Positions 13,246 to 21,350 are shown, counted from the first letter of the stretch. The stretch is DNA of 24,000 nt from an uncultured Chloroflexia bacterium (GCA_963777935.1 CAVZSL010000006.1:317287-341286), one strand, 5' to 3'. Notes: generated from the letters alone by a model not told the origin. Numbers and translations: made by a program.

Positions 13246-13761
13246 TCATTCTGGCATGTAGGGAGCCTGTCGATCGATATTACCTACAAATTGTGGTAAG
13301 TTGGTGTGCCCGAGCATTTGCCGGATTGCCAGGTTTTCCCCGGTATGGTACCAGTAGTGGTAGATCATACGCTGCAACAAGGAGCCATACGTACGTTGGA
13401 TTTTTGTACCATCTGCCTTTACGACTAAATCTTGGAGCTTGTTGCTCGTCAAGGTTTCAAGCCAGGAGCTTGTTGAAGCGGTGATATTCTGCCAAAGTTT
13501 AAGTATTTCACGCAGGGAAGGCGTGCTTGCCGGAGCGCCATATGCAAAATCCCTTTCGATCTCAGGAAATGGCATTTCCCCCATCCCATAATAAAGGATA
13601 TATTTCTGCTCCTGCCAGGCAAGGTGACCGACATTCCAGCTGATGCAATTCATTGGCAGTAAGCGCTTGCATGCATCCTCCTCCGATAAACCTTTCAGAC
13701 CCCGCTTAAACTCGGTTCGAGTGAACTTCAATTGCAAAATGATGGGATGAATCGCTTTCAT
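13246..13761 (-). CDS. DinB-family (four-helix bundle, metal-binding) protein
   Basis: 171 aa. WNVGHLAWQE and YHYWYHTGENLAIRQMLGH resemble the His triad pattern of the DinB/DinB_2 superfamily. Confidence 0.6.
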   Translation of the reverse strand: MKAIHPIILQLKFTRTEFKRGLKGLSEEDACKRLLPMNCISWNVGHLAWQEQKYILYYGMGEMPFPEIERDFAYGAPASTPSLREILKLWQNITASTSSWLETLTSNKLQDLVVKADGTKIQRTYGSLLQRMIYHYWYHTGENLAIRQMLGHTNLPQFVGNIDRQAPYMPE

Positions 13762-14082: not shown

Positions 14083-16692
14083 ATGTCTCCTCAGCTGCTG
14101 GTCACAAAACTTTATACCCCACCTGCACGTAAAGGTCTTGTCACGCGCCAGCGTTTGATCCAGTTGTTGAATGATGCTTGGCAGCAGGATAAAAAACTCA
14201 TCCTGGTCTCAGCATCGGCTGGTTATGGAAAGACCACTCTGGTGACCGAATGGTTGCGAGGCTTACAGGAAAAATCCGCATGGCTATCCCTGGACGAAAC
14301 CGATAATGATCCTACCAGGTTCCTTGCTTATCTCATCGCCGCGTTACAGATTATAGACAAAAGTATCGGGGATAAAACTCAGGCAATGCTCCAGTCACCC
14401 CAGCCGCTTCCACCTGAGGTGGTGCTGACCACACTTATAAACGAAATAGCCCTCACCCCCCAATCCTTTATCCTCGTACTGGACGATTATCACCTGATCC
14501 AGACCTTGCCAATCCACAAGCAGCTCGACTTCCTGGTGGAACACCTGCCTGCTCAAATGCACCTGGTTATCATTACGCGTGAAGATCCACCTCTTCCACT
14601 CTCCCGATTACGCGCCTGTGGTCAGATGGTCGAGATCCGGCAGAACGACCTGCGTTTCTTACCCGAGGAATGTGCAGATTTCCTACAGCGGATTATGGGA
14701 CTTAATCTCGAAACCGATGATATCACCGCTCTAGAACGCCGAACCGAAGGTTGGATCGTCGGTTTACAACTAGCTGCTATATCGATGCAAGGGCGAGATG
14801 ACCTGTCTAATTTCGTCGAGGAATTCACAGGCAGCAGCCACTACATTTTGGATTATTTAATCGAGGAAGTGTTTGAACAGCAAACACTTGAAACCCAGGA
14901 ATTCCTTTTGAAAACCTCGATCCTTAACCGCCTGTCTGGACCGCTATGCGATTTCGTTGTAGAGCGAAGAGGTAGCCACGAGCTGCTCGACCAATTTGAA
15001 CATGCCAACCTGTTTATCTTCCCACTTGACCAATCGCGTAGCTGGTATCGCTATCATCGCTTATTTGCTGAGTTATTACAGCAGCGCCTACACGCCATTG
15101 ATTCATTATCCGTAAATATGCTTAACAGTCGTGCAAGCCAGTGGTTTGCCACTGAGGGGTTCATCCCCGAAGCCATCCACCATGCACTGGATGCATCCGA
15201 TTGGGAGCAGGCAGCTAAACTTATTGCCGATTGCACGGTCCTAATGTTGAGAAGTGGTGAATTGTTGACGCTGATCGGTTGGCTCAAAGCTTTACCCAAT
15301 GAAGTAATCTTCACCCACCCGGAGCTGTGCCAAAACTATGGTTGGGCATTAACCCTCACCGGGCAGATGGAAGCTGCAGACATATATCTCTTACAAGCAG
15401 AGAAAATTGCCCGGGACGACGAGACTTTATTAGGACCTATCCTGGTCGCCCGGGCATACCACCTGCGCGTGTGTGGAAATGTTATTCAGGCGATTGATTA
15501 TGCTCAGCGAGCGTTATCGATCCTTCCCCAGTCGGATGCATTATCACGCGGCCTGGCTGCACTCACGCTCGGTCTGGCATATTGGAATCTGGGAGATTAT
15601 CAAGAATCAGAACGGGCATTTATAGAGGTTGAGCGCGCTGCTCAACAGTCAGGAAACAATTATGCCCGCATGACCGCTCGCTCATACCTGGGGAACATCC
15701 AGGCAGTTTATGGACATCTCCATAAGGCAGCTGAGTTGTGCCAACAGGTAATCCAATCGGGAGGGCAATCACCATACGTTGCTCCTGCCCATATTGGGTT
15801 AGCAGCACTTTATTATGAGTGGAATCAACTGGACCAGGCCTCTCAAGAGGCCCAAATTGGGATCGACCAGAGCCAGCGCACGGGCAATCCACTGATCTTA
15901 TGTGATGGCTACCGTATCAAAGCAGTCATATATCAGGCACTTGGCAATCCTGAGGTTGCCCTGTCGACGCTTAAAAACGCCGACCAGCTGGTTCTCAACC
16001 AGCTGGTTTCTCCACTCGCCCGTTTACGCATTGCTGCCTGCCATGTTCAGGTTGCACTGGCACAGGATAATCACACAGCGGCTCAGTTTTGGGCAGAACA
16101 GGTGACCGATCCATCTGGTGCATCTTTATATGATCCCTGCCTTGGTCTCACTCCAATTCATATTTATCTAGCTCGTCACAAGAAAAAAGAAGCCGCACAA
16201 AGGCTAAGCGAGCTCTACAATATCGCCTCGCAAAAAAGCTGTGGTGCTGGGATGGTTGAAATCCGTCTACTACAAGCCATGGCAGCGGAATCTCCACAGG
16301 GTGCACTCCAGTTTATGAAGAAAGCCTTAAAAATGGCACAACCTGAAGGCTTCATCCGCATTTTCGTTAATCAAGGGGAACCGGTGAAGAAACTGCTAGA
16401 AAGATTAAAATCCCAAGGGGGCGACATGAAAGAGTATATTCTTACCCTGCTCGCTTCTTTTGGGGAGACCAGCAAGGTATCAGCCTCACGGGGGTTGGTT
16501 GAACCCTTGAGCGAGCGTGAGCTGGATGTATTACGCCTCCTGGAGCAAGGATTGTCAAATGGGGAGATTGCAAGGCGTTTGGTGGTTACCACTGGAACAG
16601 TAAAAAGCCATGTCCACAACATTATTAATAAGCTGGAGGTGAGTAACCGCGCTCAGGCAGTTGTACAGGCAAAGGCGCTAAAGCTGATATAG
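14083..16692 (+). CDS. LuxR-family transcriptional regulator, MalT-like large ATP-binding (LAL/STAND) type
   Basis: 869 aa. N-terminal P-loop SASAGYGKTTL and Walker B-like FILVLDDYH. The central region is helical and TPR-like. The C-terminal LuxR HTH is LSERELDVLRLLEQGLSNGEIARRLVVTTGTVKSHVHNIINKLEVSNRAQAV. Confidence 0.9.
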   Translation: MSPQLLVTKLYTPPARKGLVTRQRLIQLLNDAWQQDKKLILVSASAGYGKTTLVTEWLRGLQEKSAWLSLDETDNDPTRFLAYLIAALQIIDKSIGDKTQAMLQSPQPLPPEVVLTTLINEIALTPQSFILVLDDYHLIQTLPIHKQLDFLVEHLPAQMHLVIITREDPPLPLSRLRACGQMVEIRQNDLRFLPEECADFLQRIMGLNLETDDITALERRTEGWIVGLQLAAISMQGRDDLSNFVEEFTGSSHYILDYLIEEVFEQQTLETQEFLLKTSILNRLSGPLCDFVVERRGSHELLDQFEHANLFIFPLDQSRSWYRYHRLFAELLQQRLHAIDSLSVNMLNSRASQWFATEGFIPEAIHHALDASDWEQAAKLIADCTVLMLRSGELLTLIGWLKALPNEVIFTHPELCQNYGWALTLTGQMEAADIYLLQAEKIARDDETLLGPILVARAYHLRVCGNVIQAIDYAQRALSILPQSDALSRGLAALTLGLAYWNLGDYQESERAFIEVERAAQQSGNNYARMTARSYLGNIQAVYGHLHKAAELCQQVIQSGGQSPYVAPAHIGLAALYYEWNQLDQASQEAQIGIDQSQRTGNPLILCDGYRIKAVIYQALGNPEVALSTLKNADQLVLNQLVSPLARLRIAACHVQVALAQDNHTAAQFWAEQVTDPSGASLYDPCLGLTPIHIYLARHKKKEAAQRLSELYNIASQKSCGAGMVEIRLLQAMAAESPQGALQFMKKALKMAQPEGFIRIFVNQGEPVKKLLERLKSQGGDMKEYILTLLASFGETSKVSASRGLVEPLSERELDVLRLLEQGLSNGEIARRLVVTTGTVKSHVHNIINKLEVSNRAQAVVQAKALKLI

Positions 16693-16726
16693 GTAACCTG
16701 TCCGCCGGATGATGAACAAATCCCAT

Positions 16727-16759
16727 CCCCGTTCCGCAAAGGAGCGGGGGGTTCGTTTT
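16727..16759 (+). terminator. Rho-independent terminator after the LAL regulator gene
   Basis: CCCCGTTCC (16727..16735), loop GCAAA, GGAGCGGGG (16741..16749), with one G-U pair, followed by GGTTCGTTTT. Confidence 0.65.
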
Positions 16760-16760
16760 A

Positions 16761-16803
16761 AATCTATCCTCTAATCTATCTTTGGATAGATGACAATCTA
16801 TCT
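16761..16803 (+). promoter_or_regulatory. Cluster of four phased heptamer boxes ATCTATC/GATAGAT (candidate activator/operator sites)
   Basis: ATCTATC at 16762..16768, 16774..16780 and 16796..16802, and inverted GATAGAT at 16785..16791. Start-to-start spacing is 12, 11 and 11 bp. Boxes 2 and 3 form the perfect palindrome ATCTATC-TTTG-GATAGAT. A fifth GATAGAT lies at 17398..17404, upstream of the second membrane-protein gene. Confidence 0.5.
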
Positions 16804-16824
16804 GGTTGAGCTATATGATATAGA
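16796..16824 (+). promoter_or_regulatory. Candidate promoter of the membrane-protein operon (extended -10)
   Basis: TGaTATAGA at 16816..16824. The expected -35 position (16796..16801) coincides with heptamer box 4. The ATG lies about 42 nt downstream and is preceded by GAGGAG. Confidence 0.35.
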
Positions 16825-16865
16825 CACAATCAAAATAGTTAAAAACGCCAAAAGAGGAGAATCAA

Positions 16866-17348
16866 ATGAACAGCACCGTAGATCTTCAAAATGCCACTTC
16901 TAGTAATGAACAAAGCAACAAAGATCAGTATCAGGTAAAAGTCAACCAGTATATGGCTAAGCAACCAGGGATCGTCCGCGGACTCCATACGATATTGCAG
17001 GTCGTTTTTCTGATCGCCATCGTACTTGCAACCATCTTTTTCGCAGTGGCTCTCTACTACACATTTGTCTGGATCTTTACCGGAGCACTGACCAAACTCG
17101 ATGATGCCTGGGTTGACTATGGATTGAGTATGTCGTTCCTGGCATTCCCACTGGGTCTGGACTCGATGCTCACCCGCATCTTCCCTTCAGCCATTTTCCC
17201 ACCCTCACTTTATCGGTCCACCAAGCCAATCGCCTTCATGACAGGCATTGGCGCCTTCTTTGCCGGCTTTGGGATTATGTGCGCAGGTGCTCCAGGTGCA
17301 GTCCACATGGTTGACCTGGTATCACAGGCCATCCAGAAACTATTTTAG
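16866..17348 (+). CDS. Hypothetical small membrane protein (paralogue A)
   Basis: 160 aa. Polar S/N/Q-rich N-terminus, then QYMAKQPGIVRGLH followed by a TM helix, plus 2 further hydrophobic segments. Good SD. No family recognised. Confidence 0.65.
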   Translation: MNSTVDLQNATSSNEQSNKDQYQVKVNQYMAKQPGIVRGLHTILQVVFLIAIVLATIFFAVALYYTFVWIFTGALTKLDDAWVDYGLSMSFLAFPLGLDSMLTRIFPSAIFPPSLYRSTKPIAFMTGIGAFFAGFGIMCAGAPGAVHMVDLVSQAIQKLF

Positions 17349-17358
17349 GCGCTATTAC

Positions 17359-17384
17359 GAAGCCTGGTCTCCGGATCAGGCTTC
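17359..17384 (+). other. Intercistronic hairpin (possible partial terminator/processing site)
   Basis: GAAGCCTG (17359..17366) / CAGGCTTC (17377..17384), 10-nt loop, followed by ATTTCCATTC (weak T-tract). Confidence 0.3.
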
Positions 17385-17446
17385 ATTTCCATTCTGCGAT
17401 AGATAACGCTCAAACCGAATTCTCACTAAAACGAAAGGTGGAGACC

Positions 17447-18049
17447 ATGGAGAAAACAACCGTACAAAATGTAGCAACACAGAATACAAGCTCTCAACAA
17501 TTAAAAACCCAGCTTGCCAGTTACCTTGAGGAACAGCCTGAAAACATTCAGTCGTTTCATCGTGTAATGAAGGTTCTGGAAAGCATCGCCCTCGGCATCA
17601 TGATCATTATCTTCATCACCGCCATGGTGCTGTCCTTTATGTGGAAAACCATCCCTGTAGGAGTCATCCCCGCCACATGGTTCCTCCTGCCAACAAGCGT
17701 AGCAGGTTTAATGCTACTCATCGCCGTGCATACCCTAATCCTGCACGCCTATCCCCCAAGCAACCTTTACAGCATTTACCACGGTGGATCCCCCGCCCGT
17801 TCGTTGGGGAAATATCAACAGTTCGTCACTGGTAAAGACGCGGATACTCAAGCCTTGATATTGATCCTGGTGGCACTGATCGTGGGTGCATTTTTTGCCA
17901 TCTTCGCCTGGGCATCCTGGACGGTTAACTGGGCGATTCTTACCCCCATGATCAATATCTCGGGGGTAGCATTGGGGATCGCCATCGCTGTGGGCATTGT
18001 GGGTGGCATGATTCTCAAAACTTATCAGAAACTCTCCAAATCTCGCTGA
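17447..18049 (+). CDS. Hypothetical membrane protein (paralogue B)
   Basis: The ORF track starts at GTG 17438. ATG 17447 with AAAGGTGGAG upstream is the more likely start. About 4 TM. It shares with paralogue A the layout of polar Q/S/T-rich N-terminus, SYLEEQPENIQSFH, TM, and a PPSxLY motif (YPPSNLYS versus FPPSLYRS). Confidence 0.65.
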   Translation: MEKTTVQNVATQNTSSQQLKTQLASYLEEQPENIQSFHRVMKVLESIALGIMIIIFITAMVLSFMWKTIPVGVIPATWFLLPTSVAGLMLLIAVHTLILHAYPPSNLYSIYHGGSPARSLGKYQQFVTGKDADTQALILILVALIVGAFFAIFAWASWTVNWAILTPMINISGVALGIAIAVGIVGGMILKTYQKLSKSR

Positions 18050-18108
18050 ACTTGGTTGGTTTCTGCCCTCAAGACAAGCAATAGAATAAAAATGAAAGGA
18101 GTCTTATC

Positions 18109-19644
18109 ATGGCAACAGAATCTATCAATAGATACCCACTGCGTGACCGTTGGTCATATCTCTGGCTGGGTATCGCGGCAGTTCTGCTTGTATTCACTTA
18201 TGGAATGTATCGCAATCCACTGGCTGCTTTATTGGCGCAGGTTTTCCTTATTCGCTTCCTACGCAGTCGAAAGATCGGTGTAGGCTATCTTCTGATCTGC
18301 CTGACGCTGGTGGTGGCTAATATAATCTCCTGGTGGAACCTCATGCCGACGAACCCCATCCTGGTTCGCATTATTATGGGGTCCATTTTTGGATTGTTAT
18401 ACTCTATTCCCTTCTTGCTGGACCGTGTGTTGGTGGGTCGCTTTAGTGGATTTGCTACTACTCTGGTCTTCCCTTTCGCCAGATCTGCGTTCGAGTTCCT
18501 TACCCTGTGGCCTAATCCGCTGGGTACATACGGCGCACTGGCCTACAGCCAGTTCAGCAGTGTGTATCTCACCCAATTGGTGTCGATCACAGGGTTATGG
18601 GGTGTCACCTTCCTCGTTTCATGGTTCGCCTCGACGGTCAATTGGATCTGGGAAGAGGGCATGGCCTGGCAACGCATCCGCCGTGGTCTGGCAATTTTCG
18701 CTGGCGTGACACTGGTTGTTTTGCTGTACGGCATGGTTCGCCTGACCTATTCTCAACCTCAGCCCGGAAGCGTGCGCATCCATGGGATCGTCGAGACCGA
18801 CTATACTCGCTACGATTGGGATACCAAGATCTGGCCTTTGAGTAAGACTGACCCTGAGGCTTTCAGAGCCATGATGACCCCCGTTTACGAGCGCTACTTG
18901 CAGGCTACCATCCGCGAAGCCCAGGCTGGAGCCCAGATTGTTGTATGGCCAGAAGTGGCTGCCGAAGGCTTCCGCCAGGATTTAGATGCAGTACTCTTGC
19001 AAGCGCAGGAAATCGCCCGTCAGGAAGGCATCTACCTGGCAGTGGGGTTGAACGTGATCAGCCCAAATTCGAACCCCGAAGGGGAGAACAGGCTTGTGAT
19101 AATCGACCCGCGTGGCGAAATTGTCATAAACCAACTCAAGTATGGCTGTATGGCTTTTAACATGTACGACTTCGAGATTCCAACTGTCAACACACCTTAC
19201 GGCAGGCTGGCTGGCGTGATTTGCTGCGACCTCGATTTCCCATTTGTCATCAGGCAGGTGAGCCAAAAAGGCATTGACATTCTACTGGTTCCTAGCTTCG
19301 AACCGACAACGGCAAACATCACTGCGCATTCGCAGATGGCTCCTTTCAGTGCCATTGAAAACGGCGTGTCAATCTTCCGACCTACGAGCATGGGAATCTC
19401 GCTCGCCATCGATCCATACGGACGCATCCTGGGCTCCATGGATGCCACGCGTGTTGACCAGCGCGTATTTGTGGTGCAGTTGCCCAACCACCATGTTCAT
19501 CCCGTCTATTCTGTGGTTGGTGATCTGTTTGGGTGGTTGATCGTAGTTGGTTTTGTGGTTATCGTGGGCTGGGCAATCTTCAGTAACCGCAAATCCCGAG
19601 CAGAAACAACTAGTTCTACAGGGCCACAGCCTCCATCTGCATAA
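18109..19644 (+). CDS. Lnt-like membrane-bound carbon-nitrogen hydrolase (apolipoprotein N-acyltransferase family architecture)
   Basis: 511 aa. The N-terminal ~220 aa are polytopic. The C-terminal CN-hydrolase domain carries an E-K-C triad context: IVVWPEVA, NQLKYG, AGVICCDLDFP. A final TM helix follows (WLIVVGFVVIVGWAIF). AAAGGAG SD. Confidence 0.78.
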   Translation: MATESINRYPLRDRWSYLWLGIAAVLLVFTYGMYRNPLAALLAQVFLIRFLRSRKIGVGYLLICLTLVVANIISWWNLMPTNPILVRIIMGSIFGLLYSIPFLLDRVLVGRFSGFATTLVFPFARSAFEFLTLWPNPLGTYGALAYSQFSSVYLTQLVSITGLWGVTFLVSWFASTVNWIWEEGMAWQRIRRGLAIFAGVTLVVLLYGMVRLTYSQPQPGSVRIHGIVETDYTRYDWDTKIWPLSKTDPEAFRAMMTPVYERYLQATIREAQAGAQIVVWPEVAAEGFRQDLDAVLLQAQEIARQEGIYLAVGLNVISPNSNPEGENRLVIIDPRGEIVINQLKYGCMAFNMYDFEIPTVNTPYGRLAGVICCDLDFPFVIRQVSQKGIDILLVPSFEPTTANITAHSQMAPFSAIENGVSIFRPTSMGISLAIDPYGRILGSMDATRVDQRVFVVQLPNHHVHPVYSVVGDLFGWLIVVGFVVIVGWAIFSNRKSRAETTSSTGPQPPSA

Positions 19645-19719
19645 TGAGTTGGGTGCTGCATGTGTTGAATGGAACTGCCCGCACCAACTTGTCAATACCA
19701 TATCTATGGGAAGTGAAAA

Positions 19720-19947
19720 ATGCTTCAAATTGAGATCCATCTTAAGGGAAAAATAAACCAGCAGTGGTCAGGATGGTTTGACAGCCTAACATACAGCTTA
19801 TCCGGTCACGATGAAACGGTTCTTACTGGTATTGTGGCAGACCAGGCGGCATTGTATGGGATTATTTCCCATTTGCGCGACTTGGGTTTACCACTGATTT
19901 CAGTCAGCAGTAAGGAAATTAAGGAGAATTCACATGAACGCAACTAA
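19720..19947 (+). CDS. Small conserved hypothetical protein (paralogue 1 of 2; 'LTGxVxDQxALYxxIxHLRDLGLxLIS' family)
   Basis: 75 aa. About 40 of the first 64 residues are identical, by hand alignment, to the 21129..21350 product. The 3' end overlaps the following hydrolase gene by 14 nt. Confidence 0.7.
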   Translation: MLQIEIHLKGKINQQWSGWFDSLTYSLSGHDETVLTGIVADQAALYGIISHLRDLGLPLISVSSKEIKENSHERN

Positions 19948-21010
19948 TGACCAGAATGATATCCAGGATAAATCAATTGGTAAACGGCACGGTTGTCTGG
20001 GTTGTTTGGGACGTGGCGCCATCGGATTGTTGATTTTCTTGGTGGTTATTTTGGTGGCAGGGTCAACCTATCAAACCATGGCAAGTGCCAGTGATTTAAG
20101 GAAATATCCGCCGCCGGGTGAATTATACGATGTGGGAGACTACCGGTTACACCTCTTTTGCACTGGAGAGGGCAGTCCAACCGTGATCCTGGAAGCGGGA
20201 GCGGGGAATCCGTCCATCGGTTGGTCCGTGGTGCAGAGTGGCGTGGAAGGATTTACCCGCGTTTGCTCTTATGACCGCCCCGGATTTGGCTGGAGCGATC
20301 CGGCCAACAGCCCACTTTCCAGAGAGCAGGTAGCTTCCCTCTTGCACGATTTGCTCCAAACTGCAGATGTCTCCGGACCGTATATCCTGGTTGGGCATTC
20401 TGCGGGAGGCGAGTACATTCGCGCATATGCCAGGCAGTATCCCTCCGAAGTGCTTGGAATGGTATTTGTGGACTCCTCGCATGAGAGCGAAACCCTGCGT
20501 TACCCAGCCAAATTCATGAACTTTAACCAATATCAGCTAATGACACAGAAAATATGCCAATTCCTCTCACCGGTTGGAACGGTACGCCTGATCAAACTCT
20601 GGAGCACTTTCCTCCCTGAGACGCTGACATCGACGGACATCGGGAAGGCAGTGACTTCAACCTTATACCGAAGCGGGTATTGTAAAGCGGCTTATGCTGA
20701 AGCATCCGTTTTGGGATCGCCTGGCCAGTCTGGAGAGCCTGGTAGTTTAGGAGATTTACCATTAATCGTACTTTCGGCTGGTGCTTTCAACGATAATATA
20801 CCCAGCTCTGTGGTAACAGCCATGGGCGGCTCAGATGTGCTTGCTGAGGTCGTCAAGGTTCATGATGAAATCCAACAGGAATTGGTAAACTTATCTAGCG
20901 CGGGCAAGCTAGTTGTCGCTGAGAAAAGCGGACATGAAATTCACTGGTACCAGCCTGAATTGGTAGTTAATGCAATACATACAGTCTTAGAACAGGTGCG
21001 GAACAAGTGA
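19934..21010 (+). CDS. Membrane-anchored alpha/beta-fold hydrolase
   Basis: 358 aa. TM anchor AIGLLIFLVVILVAG, nucleophile elbow LVGHSAGG, C-terminal SGHEIHW. AAGGAG lies 7 nt before the ATG. Confidence 0.85.
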   Translation: MNATNDQNDIQDKSIGKRHGCLGCLGRGAIGLLIFLVVILVAGSTYQTMASASDLRKYPPPGELYDVGDYRLHLFCTGEGSPTVILEAGAGNPSIGWSVVQSGVEGFTRVCSYDRPGFGWSDPANSPLSREQVASLLHDLLQTADVSGPYILVGHSAGGEYIRAYARQYPSEVLGMVFVDSSHESETLRYPAKFMNFNQYQLMTQKICQFLSPVGTVRLIKLWSTFLPETLTSTDIGKAVTSTLYRSGYCKAAYAEASVLGSPGQSGEPGSLGDLPLIVLSAGAFNDNIPSSVVTAMGGSDVLAEVVKVHDEIQQELVNLSSAGKLVVAEKSGHEIHWYQPELVVNAIHTVLEQVRNK

Positions 21011-21073
21011 GTAGATTTTCCTCAAAGAAATGCAAAATAAATCTTCCAATCAGGGGTGGAGCTGTTACATATA

Positions 21074-21082
21074 TGATATAAT
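21074..21082 (+). promoter_or_regulatory. Candidate extended -10 promoter for the second small-protein gene
   Basis: TGaTATAAT (TG 21074..21075, TATAAT 21077..21082), 47 nt upstream of ATG 21129. The -35 is poor (GGTGGA). Confidence 0.4.
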
Positions 21083-21128
21083 CTGAGGAAAATCAGGGCA
21101 TTATATGCTTGGGTAATAAGAGATCAAA

Positions 21129-21350
21129 ATGCTAAATATCGAGATTCGCATTAAAGGGCAGATTATCAATCCGGGATCGGGATGGCTCAACAACTTGACA
21201 TTGAGTCATTCTGACCCGGATGAAACCATACTCACAGGAATCGTTTCAGATCAAATTGCCTTGTATCAGTTAATAACCCATTTACGAGATTTAGGCTTAT
21301 ACCTGATATCGATAAGCAGTGAAGACTTAATGGATCAAAATCCACCCTAA
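21129..21350 (+). CDS. Small conserved hypothetical protein (paralogue 2 of 2)
   Basis: 73 aa: MLNIEIRIKGQIINPGSGWLNNLTLSHSDPDETILTGIVSDQIALYQLITHLRDLGLYLISISS. It is collinear with the 19720..19947 product. Confidence 0.7.
   Translation: MLNIEIRIKGQIINPGSGWLNNLTLSHSDPDETILTGIVSDQIALYQLITHLRDLGLYLISISSEDLMDQNPP

Follow-up and report, generated by a model that had tools for sequence, protein, structure and literature searches.

An LAL regulator, a widespread family of ∼75-aa proteins, and an Lnt-fold membrane enzyme in a putative accessory operon of an uncultured Chloroflexia bacterium

Introduction

LAL regulators, which are MalT-type STAND ATPases with a LuxR helix-turn-helix, occur widely and govern operons for stress and for the biosynthesis of antibiotics, and few of their partners or ligands are known outside MalT. 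MalT itself is restrained by the partner proteins MalK, MalY, and Aes. We examined a locus in which an LAL gene heads a set of co-directional open reading frames (ORFs) in the metagenome-assembled genome of an uncultured Chloroflexia bacterium. The locus lies in a 24,000-nt stretch of DNA (GCA_963777935.1 CAVZSL010000006.1:317287-341286), which we refer to as the window and from whose first nucleotide its positions are counted. Behind the LAL gene come genes for two membrane proteins of 160 and 203 aa, an integral membrane CN-hydrolase that resembles Lnt, a 75-aa protein, a membrane-anchored alpha/beta hydrolase, and a 73-aa protein (Table 1). An original prediction, made from the sequence alone, had proposed that these genes form an inducible module for the remodeling of envelope lipids or lipoproteins. 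Our preferred reading, to which we assign a probability of roughly 0.55, is that they form an accessory LAL-controlled operon, in which a regulatory cassette of LAL protein and small partner carries cargo that handles acyl or amide groups in the envelope.

The window LAL protein shares with MalT and other LAL regulators a P-loop, a TPR_MalT region, and a GerE domain, and its putative promoter likewise has short direct and inverted boxes that end shortly before a weak -35 element or overlap it. It differs from MalT in that it is not an ortholog, that its boxes read AATCTATC and vary from LAL to LAL, and that its proposed partner is an unrelated ∼75-aa protein from the regulated operon, a partnership suggested by gene linkage. 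Another described system is IniR-iniBAC of mycobacteria, in which an LAL-type regulator answers envelope stress and lies next to an inducible envelope operon. The two loci are alike in having an LAL-type ATPase/LuxR regulator beside an envelope-related operon, but NF038181 matches only the helix-turn-helix tail of the window LAL protein (17.6 bits against a cutoff of 750 bits), and the cargo of iniBAC is dynamin-like, whereas here it includes an Lnt-like enzyme and a hydrolase.

The closest described counterpart of the enzyme is Lnt (5N6H, 5N6M, and 8AQ4; TIGR00546), in which a nitrilase-like domain is inserted before the last of eight transmembrane helices. In E. coli Lnt, residues W237, E343, Y388, and E389 are reported to be essential. 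The window protein has the same architecture and probably also uses a thioester acyl-enzyme on the outward side of the membrane. In contrast to Lnt, it has an invariant Asp in place of E389 and an unusually conserved membrane domain, and its gene is accessory, patchy within the genus, and placed behind LAL or TetR regulators. Our literature search found nothing on this Lnt-like enzyme family, the small LAL partner, DUF4386, or DUF6326.

A family of small proteins encoded beside LAL genes

The linkage between LAL genes and genes for the small proteins is the most interesting result of this analysis, and the Lnt-fold paralog family described below ranks second. An exhaustive profile search for relatives of the 75-aa protein recovered 11,936 clusters at 50% identity, 4,883 of them with E <= 1e-10. 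Members of the family carry the RefSeq label "hypothetical protein." Across 28 members, no Pfam or NCBIfam model matched even at E = 1 to 10, and no solved structure was found among the sequence relatives. This genome contains six members of the family and seven LAL genes, and the 73-aa protein of the window is the genome's second-best match to the family profile. Three of the four members outside the window pair sit 66 to 154 nt downstream of another LAL gene; the chance of lying within 5 kb of an LAL gene is ∼2% per gene in this genome.

The association extended to other genomes. An LAL gene adjoined the small gene in 21 of 24 Chloroflexota loci, including three of the four extra copies of this genome. 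At 18 of the 20 loci from other Chloroflexota genomes, the small gene had an LAL neighbor, in nearly every case immediately upstream and in the same orientation, and one of the two exceptions was at a contig end. In Actinomycetes, an LAL gene was found within ∼4 kb of the small gene in 18 of 20 loci, often in divergent orientation. Each of the 22 sampled Chloroflexota genomes that encode the small protein had LAL genes as well, compared with 60 of 121 genomes overall, and the full-length LAL homologs nearest to the window LAL protein were those with an adjoining small gene.

The cargo behind these cassettes, on the other hand, was variable and included DUF4386 and DUF6326 membrane proteins, zinc dehydrogenases, flavodoxin-like reductases, alpha/beta hydrolases, beta-lactamase-fold proteins, and transporters. 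The small domain was also found fused to the N terminus of cargo proteins (DUF6326, DUF4386, a dehalogenase-like alpha/beta hydrolase, and NUDIX), and a four-helix transmembrane block flanked by two copies of the domain was found as well. Because the regulator is the constant neighbor and the cargo the variable one, we assigned the small protein to the regulatory circuit. Judging from gene linkage, the small proteins most likely belong to the regulatory layer and not to the chemistry of the enzymes. The small protein is a signature companion of an LAL subfamily in at least three phyla, and its gene is usually the first after the LAL promoter.

More tentatively, we propose that the ∼75-aa family, which spans Chloroflexota, Actinomycetota, and Cyanobacteriota, is the dedicated partner of a major LAL/MalT-type STAND subfamily and would give the regulator feedback on the state of its cargo, a proposal whose chances we put somewhat short of even. 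Each partner would be a product of the operon that its regulator activates, or a domain fused to the first protein of that operon. In their logic, the small proteins could be feedback or adaptor partners of LAL, much as MalK, MalY, and Aes are of MalT. The AlphaFold2 model of the 75-aa protein (pLDDT, 82.6) has the order beta-beta-beta-alpha-beta with a single helix, and Foldseek matched it weakly to ACT, HMA, PII, and RAM domains (best E = 0.008; TM-score, ∼0.5; 13 to 20% identity). Stand-alone ACT/RAM-type domains (e.g., the ACT domain of GTP pyrophosphokinase, 3IBW; PII/PstA; and the Lrp/AsnC RAM domain), the best structural neighbors of the model, are also alpha+beta sandwiches of ∼70 residues, and they typically bind small ligands and modulate partner proteins. 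Their ferredoxin-like order, beta-alpha-beta-beta-alpha-beta, differs from the single-helix order of the model.

If LAL regulators do have a near-obligate small partner, it would provide a way to study LAL switching and a genomic marker for LAL operons, and feedback through such a partner would be a general, so far undescribed control layer of the LAL class.

It is important to note that several observations weigh against this picture of a regulatory cassette. The sampled small-protein loci were the best-scoring matches of the family, and related genomes in the samples are not independent. Roughly a third of the close LAL homologs lacked an adjoining small gene. Moreover, the small genes stand fourth and sixth in the operon of the window, whereas the small gene comes first in most cassettes; at Lnt-type loci, the enzyme gene has apparently been inserted downstream of the LAL promoter, ahead of the small gene. 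The 73-aa gene may also have its own promoter, as a consensus-like TATGATATAAT lies ahead of it at 21074-21082, and a search upstream of this gene for a box cluster like the one described below found none. Finally, we considered a homotypic adaptor; a search of the LAL protein for a small-domain copy found none, and the LAL and small proteins showed no similarity to each other.

The domain fusions bear on a different explanation, in which the locus would be a STAND-ATPase conflict (defense) system and the small domain an adaptor linking the STAND protein with effectors that are hydrolytic or damage membranes. The small domain, N-terminal on varied membrane, hydrolase, and NUDIX proteins near a STAND ATPase, has a layout similar to that of the effector-associated domains of NTPase conflict systems. 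However, PADLOC gave generic helix-turn-helix and nitrilase matches only, and the STAND protein of the window has a DNA-binding output domain and lacks a small-domain copy. A conserved box promoter separates the regulator from the cargo, and the cargo looks metabolic rather than toxic. We consider a defense system highly unlikely.

Two large plasmids, of which one was typed as conjugative, also carry cassettes of LAL and small protein, with cargo that includes DUF6326, VOC, dehydrogenase, methyltransferase, and MMPL proteins. In RefSeq, a Candidatus Chlorohelix plasmid (locus L147) encodes a LuxR-type regulator, the small protein, and an MMPL transporter. On plasmid pREC3 of Acaryochloris marina (L146), the genes for the small protein and DUF6326 proteins lie 3.6 kb from a LuxR-type regulator gene.

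Within the genome studied here (G000), LAL genes were located at 331369, 344450, 359076, and 423056 on contig C6 and at 16053 on contig C2; four of the seven lie within ∼95 kb on C6. One of them starts ∼3 kb past the end of the window, and no small gene was detected beside it. Elsewhere on C6, another LAL and small-gene pair is followed by a gene (L104:4664-5155) whose product has a lipoprotein-type signal peptide, with a hydrophobic stretch ending in ...TACSS; genes for an S9-type hydrolase and a DUF4396 membrane protein come next.

The LAL regulator and its putative promoter

The window LAL protein contains AAA_16 (residues 19 to 164), TPR_MalT (residues 452 to 777; E = 5.8e-59), and GerE (residues 808 to 862; E = 5e-18) domains, and its Walker A (ASAGYGKT, residues 44 to 51) and Walker B (ILVLDD, residues 130 to 135) motifs are both intact. 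We rejected the protein as a MalT ortholog because NF003420 scored 440 bits, below the cutoff of 537 bits; it is thus a member of the LAL family but not MalT. The stop codon of the LAL gene is followed by a hairpin with 7 G-C pairs in its stem and then by GTTCGTTTTA, and relatives L018 and L024 have comparable hairpins at the corresponding place after their LAL genes. We infer that the LAL gene is a separate transcription unit, ended by this terminator-like hairpin.

Downstream of the hairpin come three direct AATCTATC(T/C) boxes, whose first positions are 16761, 16773, and 16795 and whose cores begin at 16762, 16774, and 16796, and an inverted copy is located at 16785-16791, giving a start-to-start spacing of 11 to 12 nt. 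A -35-like ATGACA (16790-16795) abuts the palindrome formed by the last boxes, and a -10 element, TATGAT, is found at 16814-16819. The box cluster had been noticed in the original prediction, and it is real: four of the seven copies of ATCTATC in the window fall within 16762-16802. In relatives, two or three direct boxes are found downstream of LAL, followed by an inverted one joined directly to (G)ATGAC(A). The sequence of the boxes, in turn, varies with the regulator. It is ATCTATC in close relatives, TCACCC in L029 and L046, CCCACCC in L077 and L095, and ACACCT, ATACCCTAT, or CCCCACA in other LAL cassettes. We observed a four-box array, to which binding by LAL is predicted from the sequence, and a conserved architecture in which the box sequences co-vary; a conserved layout with co-varying boxes is the expected look of a dedicated activator site. 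The claim of a dedicated-looking regulator was supported in this sense, with a terminator-like hairpin of its own and a repeat-box promoter whose architecture is kept in relatives.

In L020 (8969-9300, in the interval that separates the LAL stop codon from the homolog of the 203-aa gene), the whole promoter unit, consisting of boxes, inverted copy, GATGACA, and a TATAGT -10 element, occurs twice, ∼150 nt apart, with a short ORF separating the two copies.

Taken with the cargo, these features suggest how the preferred accessory operon could work. The TPR_MalT region would sense a ligand, and the LAL protein, together with ATP, would oligomerize on the four AATCTATC boxes spaced 11 to 12 bp. Bound at the palindrome that abuts the weak -35 element, it would activate the downstream genes, as MalT does at box arrays. 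Gene spacing, ribosome-binding sites, and conservation of the promoter point to a single transcript that would reach at least to the hydrolase gene. The products would include two paralogous polytopic membrane proteins, an Lnt-fold enzyme with an intact triad, and a membrane-anchored serine hydrolase, and the catalytic domains of the two enzymes are predicted to be on the outer side of the cytoplasmic membrane. From their folds, both enzymes most likely work through acyl-enzyme intermediates, by which acyl or amide groups would be transferred or removed; the substrate would be envelope-associated or exogenous, and lipidic.

A second hairpin had been predicted between the 160-aa and 203-aa genes (17359-17384), and it is present, with a predicted energy of -23 kcal/mol. 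In L013, the orthologous spacer is changed on both sides of the stem, and the stem is kept through compensatory changes. The hairpin has no clear U-tract, and its candidate roles are attenuation, processing, or stability.

An Lnt-fold enzyme family distinct from Lnt

The AlphaFold2 model of the Lnt-like protein (pLDDT, 92.8; pTM, 0.91) has a predicted topology of eight transmembrane helices and an outward-facing nitrilase-like domain. The top 24 Foldseek matches of the model were all Lnt chains (full-length TM-score, 0.65 to 0.71; 16 to 18% identity), with E. coli and P. aeruginosa Lnt as the best structural matches, and the protein has the Lnt topology. Residues E282, K344, C372, and D374 were invariant among 76 family sequences from many phyla, and the first three align with the triad of E. 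coli Lnt (E267, K335, and C387).

An identity as Lnt itself was rejected on several grounds. The protein scored 91.2 bits against TIGR00546 (57.7 bits in a six-frame search of the genome), compared with a cutoff of 132.9 bits. When the protein was aligned by MAFFT to E. coli Lnt and four canonical Lnts, E343 fell opposite A349, a position that is mostly Gly in the family, and W237 fell opposite the variable P249, the W237 region being the less certain part of this alignment. The position of E389 is the invariant Asp, and the W415/F416 loop is deleted. Further, a canonical Lnt (254 to 362 bits) is encoded elsewhere in four of the five genomes from other phyla that carry the Lnt-like family. The protein is therefore a member of a paralog family distinct from Lnt and spread over phyla. 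A housekeeping N-acyltransferase role was rejected as well, given these four genomes and the presence of a close homolog in only 4 of the 21 other genomes searched in the same genus. Conditional N-acylation of lipoproteins is unlikely to be the general role of the family.

The situation in this genome is different in one respect. The six-frame search with TIGR00546 found no canonical Lnt here, and Lgt is present (181 bits, above its cutoff), so that conditional N-acylation of lipoproteins is possible in this bacterium. One alternative to the preferred operon builds on this point: the genes would make up a single inducible lipoprotein-remodeling pathway, in which the Lnt-like protein is a conditional N-acyltransferase that adds a third acyl chain under stress and the hydrolase removes the lyso-phospholipid by-product. 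The complete Lnt architecture and triad agree with this pathway, as does a genome with Lgt and without canonical Lnt, in which lipoproteins would otherwise be diacylated. Inducible remodeling of lipoprotein N termini also has a precedent in the copper-induced lit2 of Listeria and Enterococcus. Against it stand the TIGR00546 score, the unconserved E343 and W237 positions and the deleted loop, and the canonical Lnt of four of the five other-phyla genomes, where the family is not needed for N-acylation. The gene is also absent from most genomes of the same genus, and the small proteins are linked to the regulator rather than to this chemistry. We regard such a pathway as improbable, and the lipoprotein part of the original prediction is weakened by finding a paralog that lacks Lnt-essential residues and coexists with canonical Lnt in other phyla.

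The enzymes have two candidate roles, in which they would modify either envelope lipids or lipoproteins or a compound from outside the cell. In the Lnt-like family, about half of the invariant columns fall within residues 122 to 208 of the membrane domain, and this concentration suggests a specific lipid or membrane partner. The sequence of the CN-hydrolase domain is equally near soluble amidases and Lnt. The second role leads to another rival explanation, a xenobiotic or antibiotic response in which the LAL protein would sense an exogenous compound and the outward-facing enzymes would cleave or acylate, for instance, a lipopeptide, an amide, or an ester. The proximity to soluble amidases fits this explanation, and so does the detoxification-like cargo of other cassettes (quinone/alcohol oxidoreductases, flavodoxin-like reductases, beta-lactamase-fold proteins, alpha/beta hydrolases, VOC and GNAT proteins, and MMPL and ABC transporters). 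Acidobacteriota homologs of the Lnt-like gene stand behind TetR regulators, and a divergent gene of the DinB_2/mycothiol-S-transferase type is kept in two relatives. The strongly conserved membrane domain, however, suggests a membrane-lipid donor or partner over a soluble substrate, the operon contains no transporter gene, and the detoxification theme rests on family names only. A response of this kind remains, in our estimate, a minority prospect. A cross-phylum Lnt-fold paralog without the acceptor-side residues of Lnt, under dedicated LAL or TetR control, points to an as yet uncharacterized acyl-transfer or amidase reaction on the outward side of the membrane. Knowledge of its substrate could bring to light a new envelope modification or a new means by which external compounds are inactivated.

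In a tree of the enzyme family, the window protein belongs to a well-supported, mostly Chloroflexota clade in which the context of LAL and small protein prevails. Other arrangements were seen at individual loci. One 10.8-kb Anaerolineaceae contig (L025:198-9203) carries three Lnt-like paralogs, two small-protein genes, and one hydrolase gene; two of these Lnt-like paralogs, one of the small-protein genes, and an LAL gene are on the strand opposite the first set. A TetR-family gene, not an LAL gene, lies directly upstream of the Lnt-like homolog in Acidobacteriota loci L067, L068, L081, L082, L084, L092, and L094, and a TetR gene likewise replaces LAL in L035, L043, and L085. At four Terriglobia loci among these (L067, L068, L081, and L082), a biotin carboxylase gene follows the Lnt-like homolog.

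Conservation of the gene set

A close homolog of the Lnt-like gene was found in 4 of the 21 other genomes searched in the same genus, in one case with internal stops, and in one genome from another genus of the family. Its presence in so few genomes of the genus indicates that the module is accessory. The order of LAL, 203-aa, Lnt-like, and small gene is kept in those four genomes; two of the four also have the hydrolase gene, and one has the 160-aa gene together with the 73-aa copy. The homolog from the other genus has none of these neighbors.

We scanned more widely, using one genome per species, and collected 79 loci with homologs of the enzyme. An LAL gene adjoined the Lnt-like gene in 27 of 78 loci, a small-protein gene in ∼22, a hydrolase gene in ∼10, and a member of the 160/203-aa family in ∼9. 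LAL, Lnt-like, and small genes occurred together in ∼20 loci, down to ∼38% identity of the enzyme and including a second phylum; Actinomycetota loci with the cluster are L069, L075, and L096. In Geodermatophilus and a related actinobacterial genome, the small-protein homolog is just upstream of the enzyme gene, and the LAL gene is just downstream on the other strand. In Acidobacteriota, the enzyme gene is behind a TetR gene instead of LAL. The recurrence of the gene order in many genomes argues that the arrangement is not due to chance.

The opposite view, that these are unrelated neighbors that happen to share a direction and form no module, can point to the 160/203-aa family, the hydrolase, and the 73-aa copy, each of which is found in a subset of the loci. 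It does not account well for an order of LAL, Lnt-like, and small genes that recurs in ∼20 loci and in a second phylum, for a 14-nt overlap between the small and hydrolase genes, or for a single conserved promoter ahead of the set. Chance adjacency, like a defense system, is unlikely, and in our judgment extremely so. A lack of co-occurrence in other genomes had been named as grounds for abandoning the module, and the families do co-occur elsewhere. The idea of one inducible envelope module survives in part. What stands is a regulated, conserved, and envelope-located module; what does not is a single indivisible pathway, since the small proteins follow LAL whatever the cargo.

Several copies in relatives appear damaged. 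The LAL gene is split into 3 to 4 frames in L013, L020, and L022, the Lnt-like gene has internal stops in one genome (G019; L016/L024 on contig C1), and the one homolog of the 73-aa gene found in a relative (L013) appears frameshifted. These frameshifts and stops may reflect genuine decay of an accessory module, or they may be indel errors in the assemblies.

The anchored hydrolase and the lineage-restricted membrane proteins

The hydrolase matched Abhydrolase_1 (53.5 bits) and Abhydrolase_6 (54.2 bits) above the Pfam cutoff and has a GHSAG nucleophile elbow at residue 154. NCBIfam and Protein Data Bank (PDB) searches returned generic relatives and no specific subfamily. A single N-terminal transmembrane segment lies within residues 19 to 52, and because a positively charged N terminus precedes it, the catalytic domain should face outward. 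With this anchor and the Lnt topology of the other enzyme, both enzymes are membrane-bound, and their original description as membrane-associated was correct. The start of the hydrolase gene overlaps the 75-aa gene, inside which its AAGGAG ribosome-binding site is located, and the hydrolase gene is kept behind a small gene in ∼10 loci.

The 160-aa and 203-aa proteins are related to each other (BLASTP E = 5e-8, with common motifs in the alignment). The 203-aa protein has four hydrophobic segments, and the 160-aa protein has hydrophobic segments as well. All 85 homologs of the 203-aa protein are on Anaerolineales-type contigs, and homologs of the 160-aa protein were seen in L013 and L023 only. 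Members of the 203-aa family lie upstream of the Lnt-like gene in ∼9 loci. Within the gene set, the 160/203-aa family and the hydrolase are additions restricted to particular lineages. Some sources label the 203-aa protein DctQ, the small permease of TRAP transporters; we rejected this identity, since the match covered residues 137 to 192 only and scored 20.8 bits, below the cutoff of 28.3 bits; no TRAP transporter partners were found near the gene.

At seven loci (L022, L029, L030, L039, L040, L042, and L045; e.g., L030:6075-6677), the membrane-protein position is occupied by a ∼200-aa protein with four transmembrane segments and no Pfam match (cluster c8), whose sequence is unrelated to the 160/203-aa family. 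In profile comparisons of the 160/203-aa family with c8, DUF6326, DUF4386, and the transmembrane block with two small domains, no kinship was detectable (probability, <2%). In L022, L030, and L040, the c8 protein comes after a second, divergent Lnt-like paralog.

Gene layout of the locus

The assembly comprises 3.8 Mb over 13 contigs and belongs to Anaerolineales (Chloroflexota), a label that homologs also bear. All seven plus-strand ORFs were present at the coordinates first proposed, which span 14083-21350 (Table 1). The intergenic gaps are, in order, 173, 89, 59, 75, -14, and 118 nt, and recognizable ribosome-binding sites precede most of the genes. Pfam and NCBIfam assignments agreed with the domain descriptions of the original prediction. 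The two proposed pairs of paralogs are real, and the 160-, 203-, 75-, and 73-aa proteins, described as families without an assignable function, matched no Pfam or NCBIfam family above cutoff.

Table 1. Coordinates of genes and other features of the locus, counted from the first nucleotide of the window
Feature	Position	Strand	Description
LAL (MalT-type STAND ATPase, LuxR helix-turn-helix) regulator, 869 aa	14083..16692	+	AAA_16, TPR_MalT, GerE
Terminator-like hairpin with T-run	16726..16750	+	10-pair stem
Putative LAL-dependent promoter	16761..16819	+	AATCTATC(T/C) boxes, -35-like element, -10 element
160-aa membrane protein	16866..17348	+	Paralog of 203-aa protein; hydrophobic segments
Intergenic hairpin between 160-aa and 203-aa genes	17359..17384	+	11-pair stem
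203-aa protein, four transmembrane segments	17438..18049	+	Narrow Anaerolineales family
Lnt-fold integral membrane CN-hydrolase, 511 aa	18109..19644	+	LNT_N, CN_hydrolase; AlphaFold2 model
75-aa small protein, predicted cytoplasmic	19720..19947	+	Member of LAL-associated family
Transmembrane-anchored alpha/beta (serine) hydrolase, 358 aa	19934..21010	+	Abhydrolase_1/6
73-aa paralog of 75-aa protein	21129..21350	+	56% identity

On the other side of the LAL gene, and divergent from it, is the DinB_2/mycothiol-S-transferase-like gene (13246-13761, minus strand), whose position is kept in L013 and L016/L024 and which may share the LAL regulatory region.

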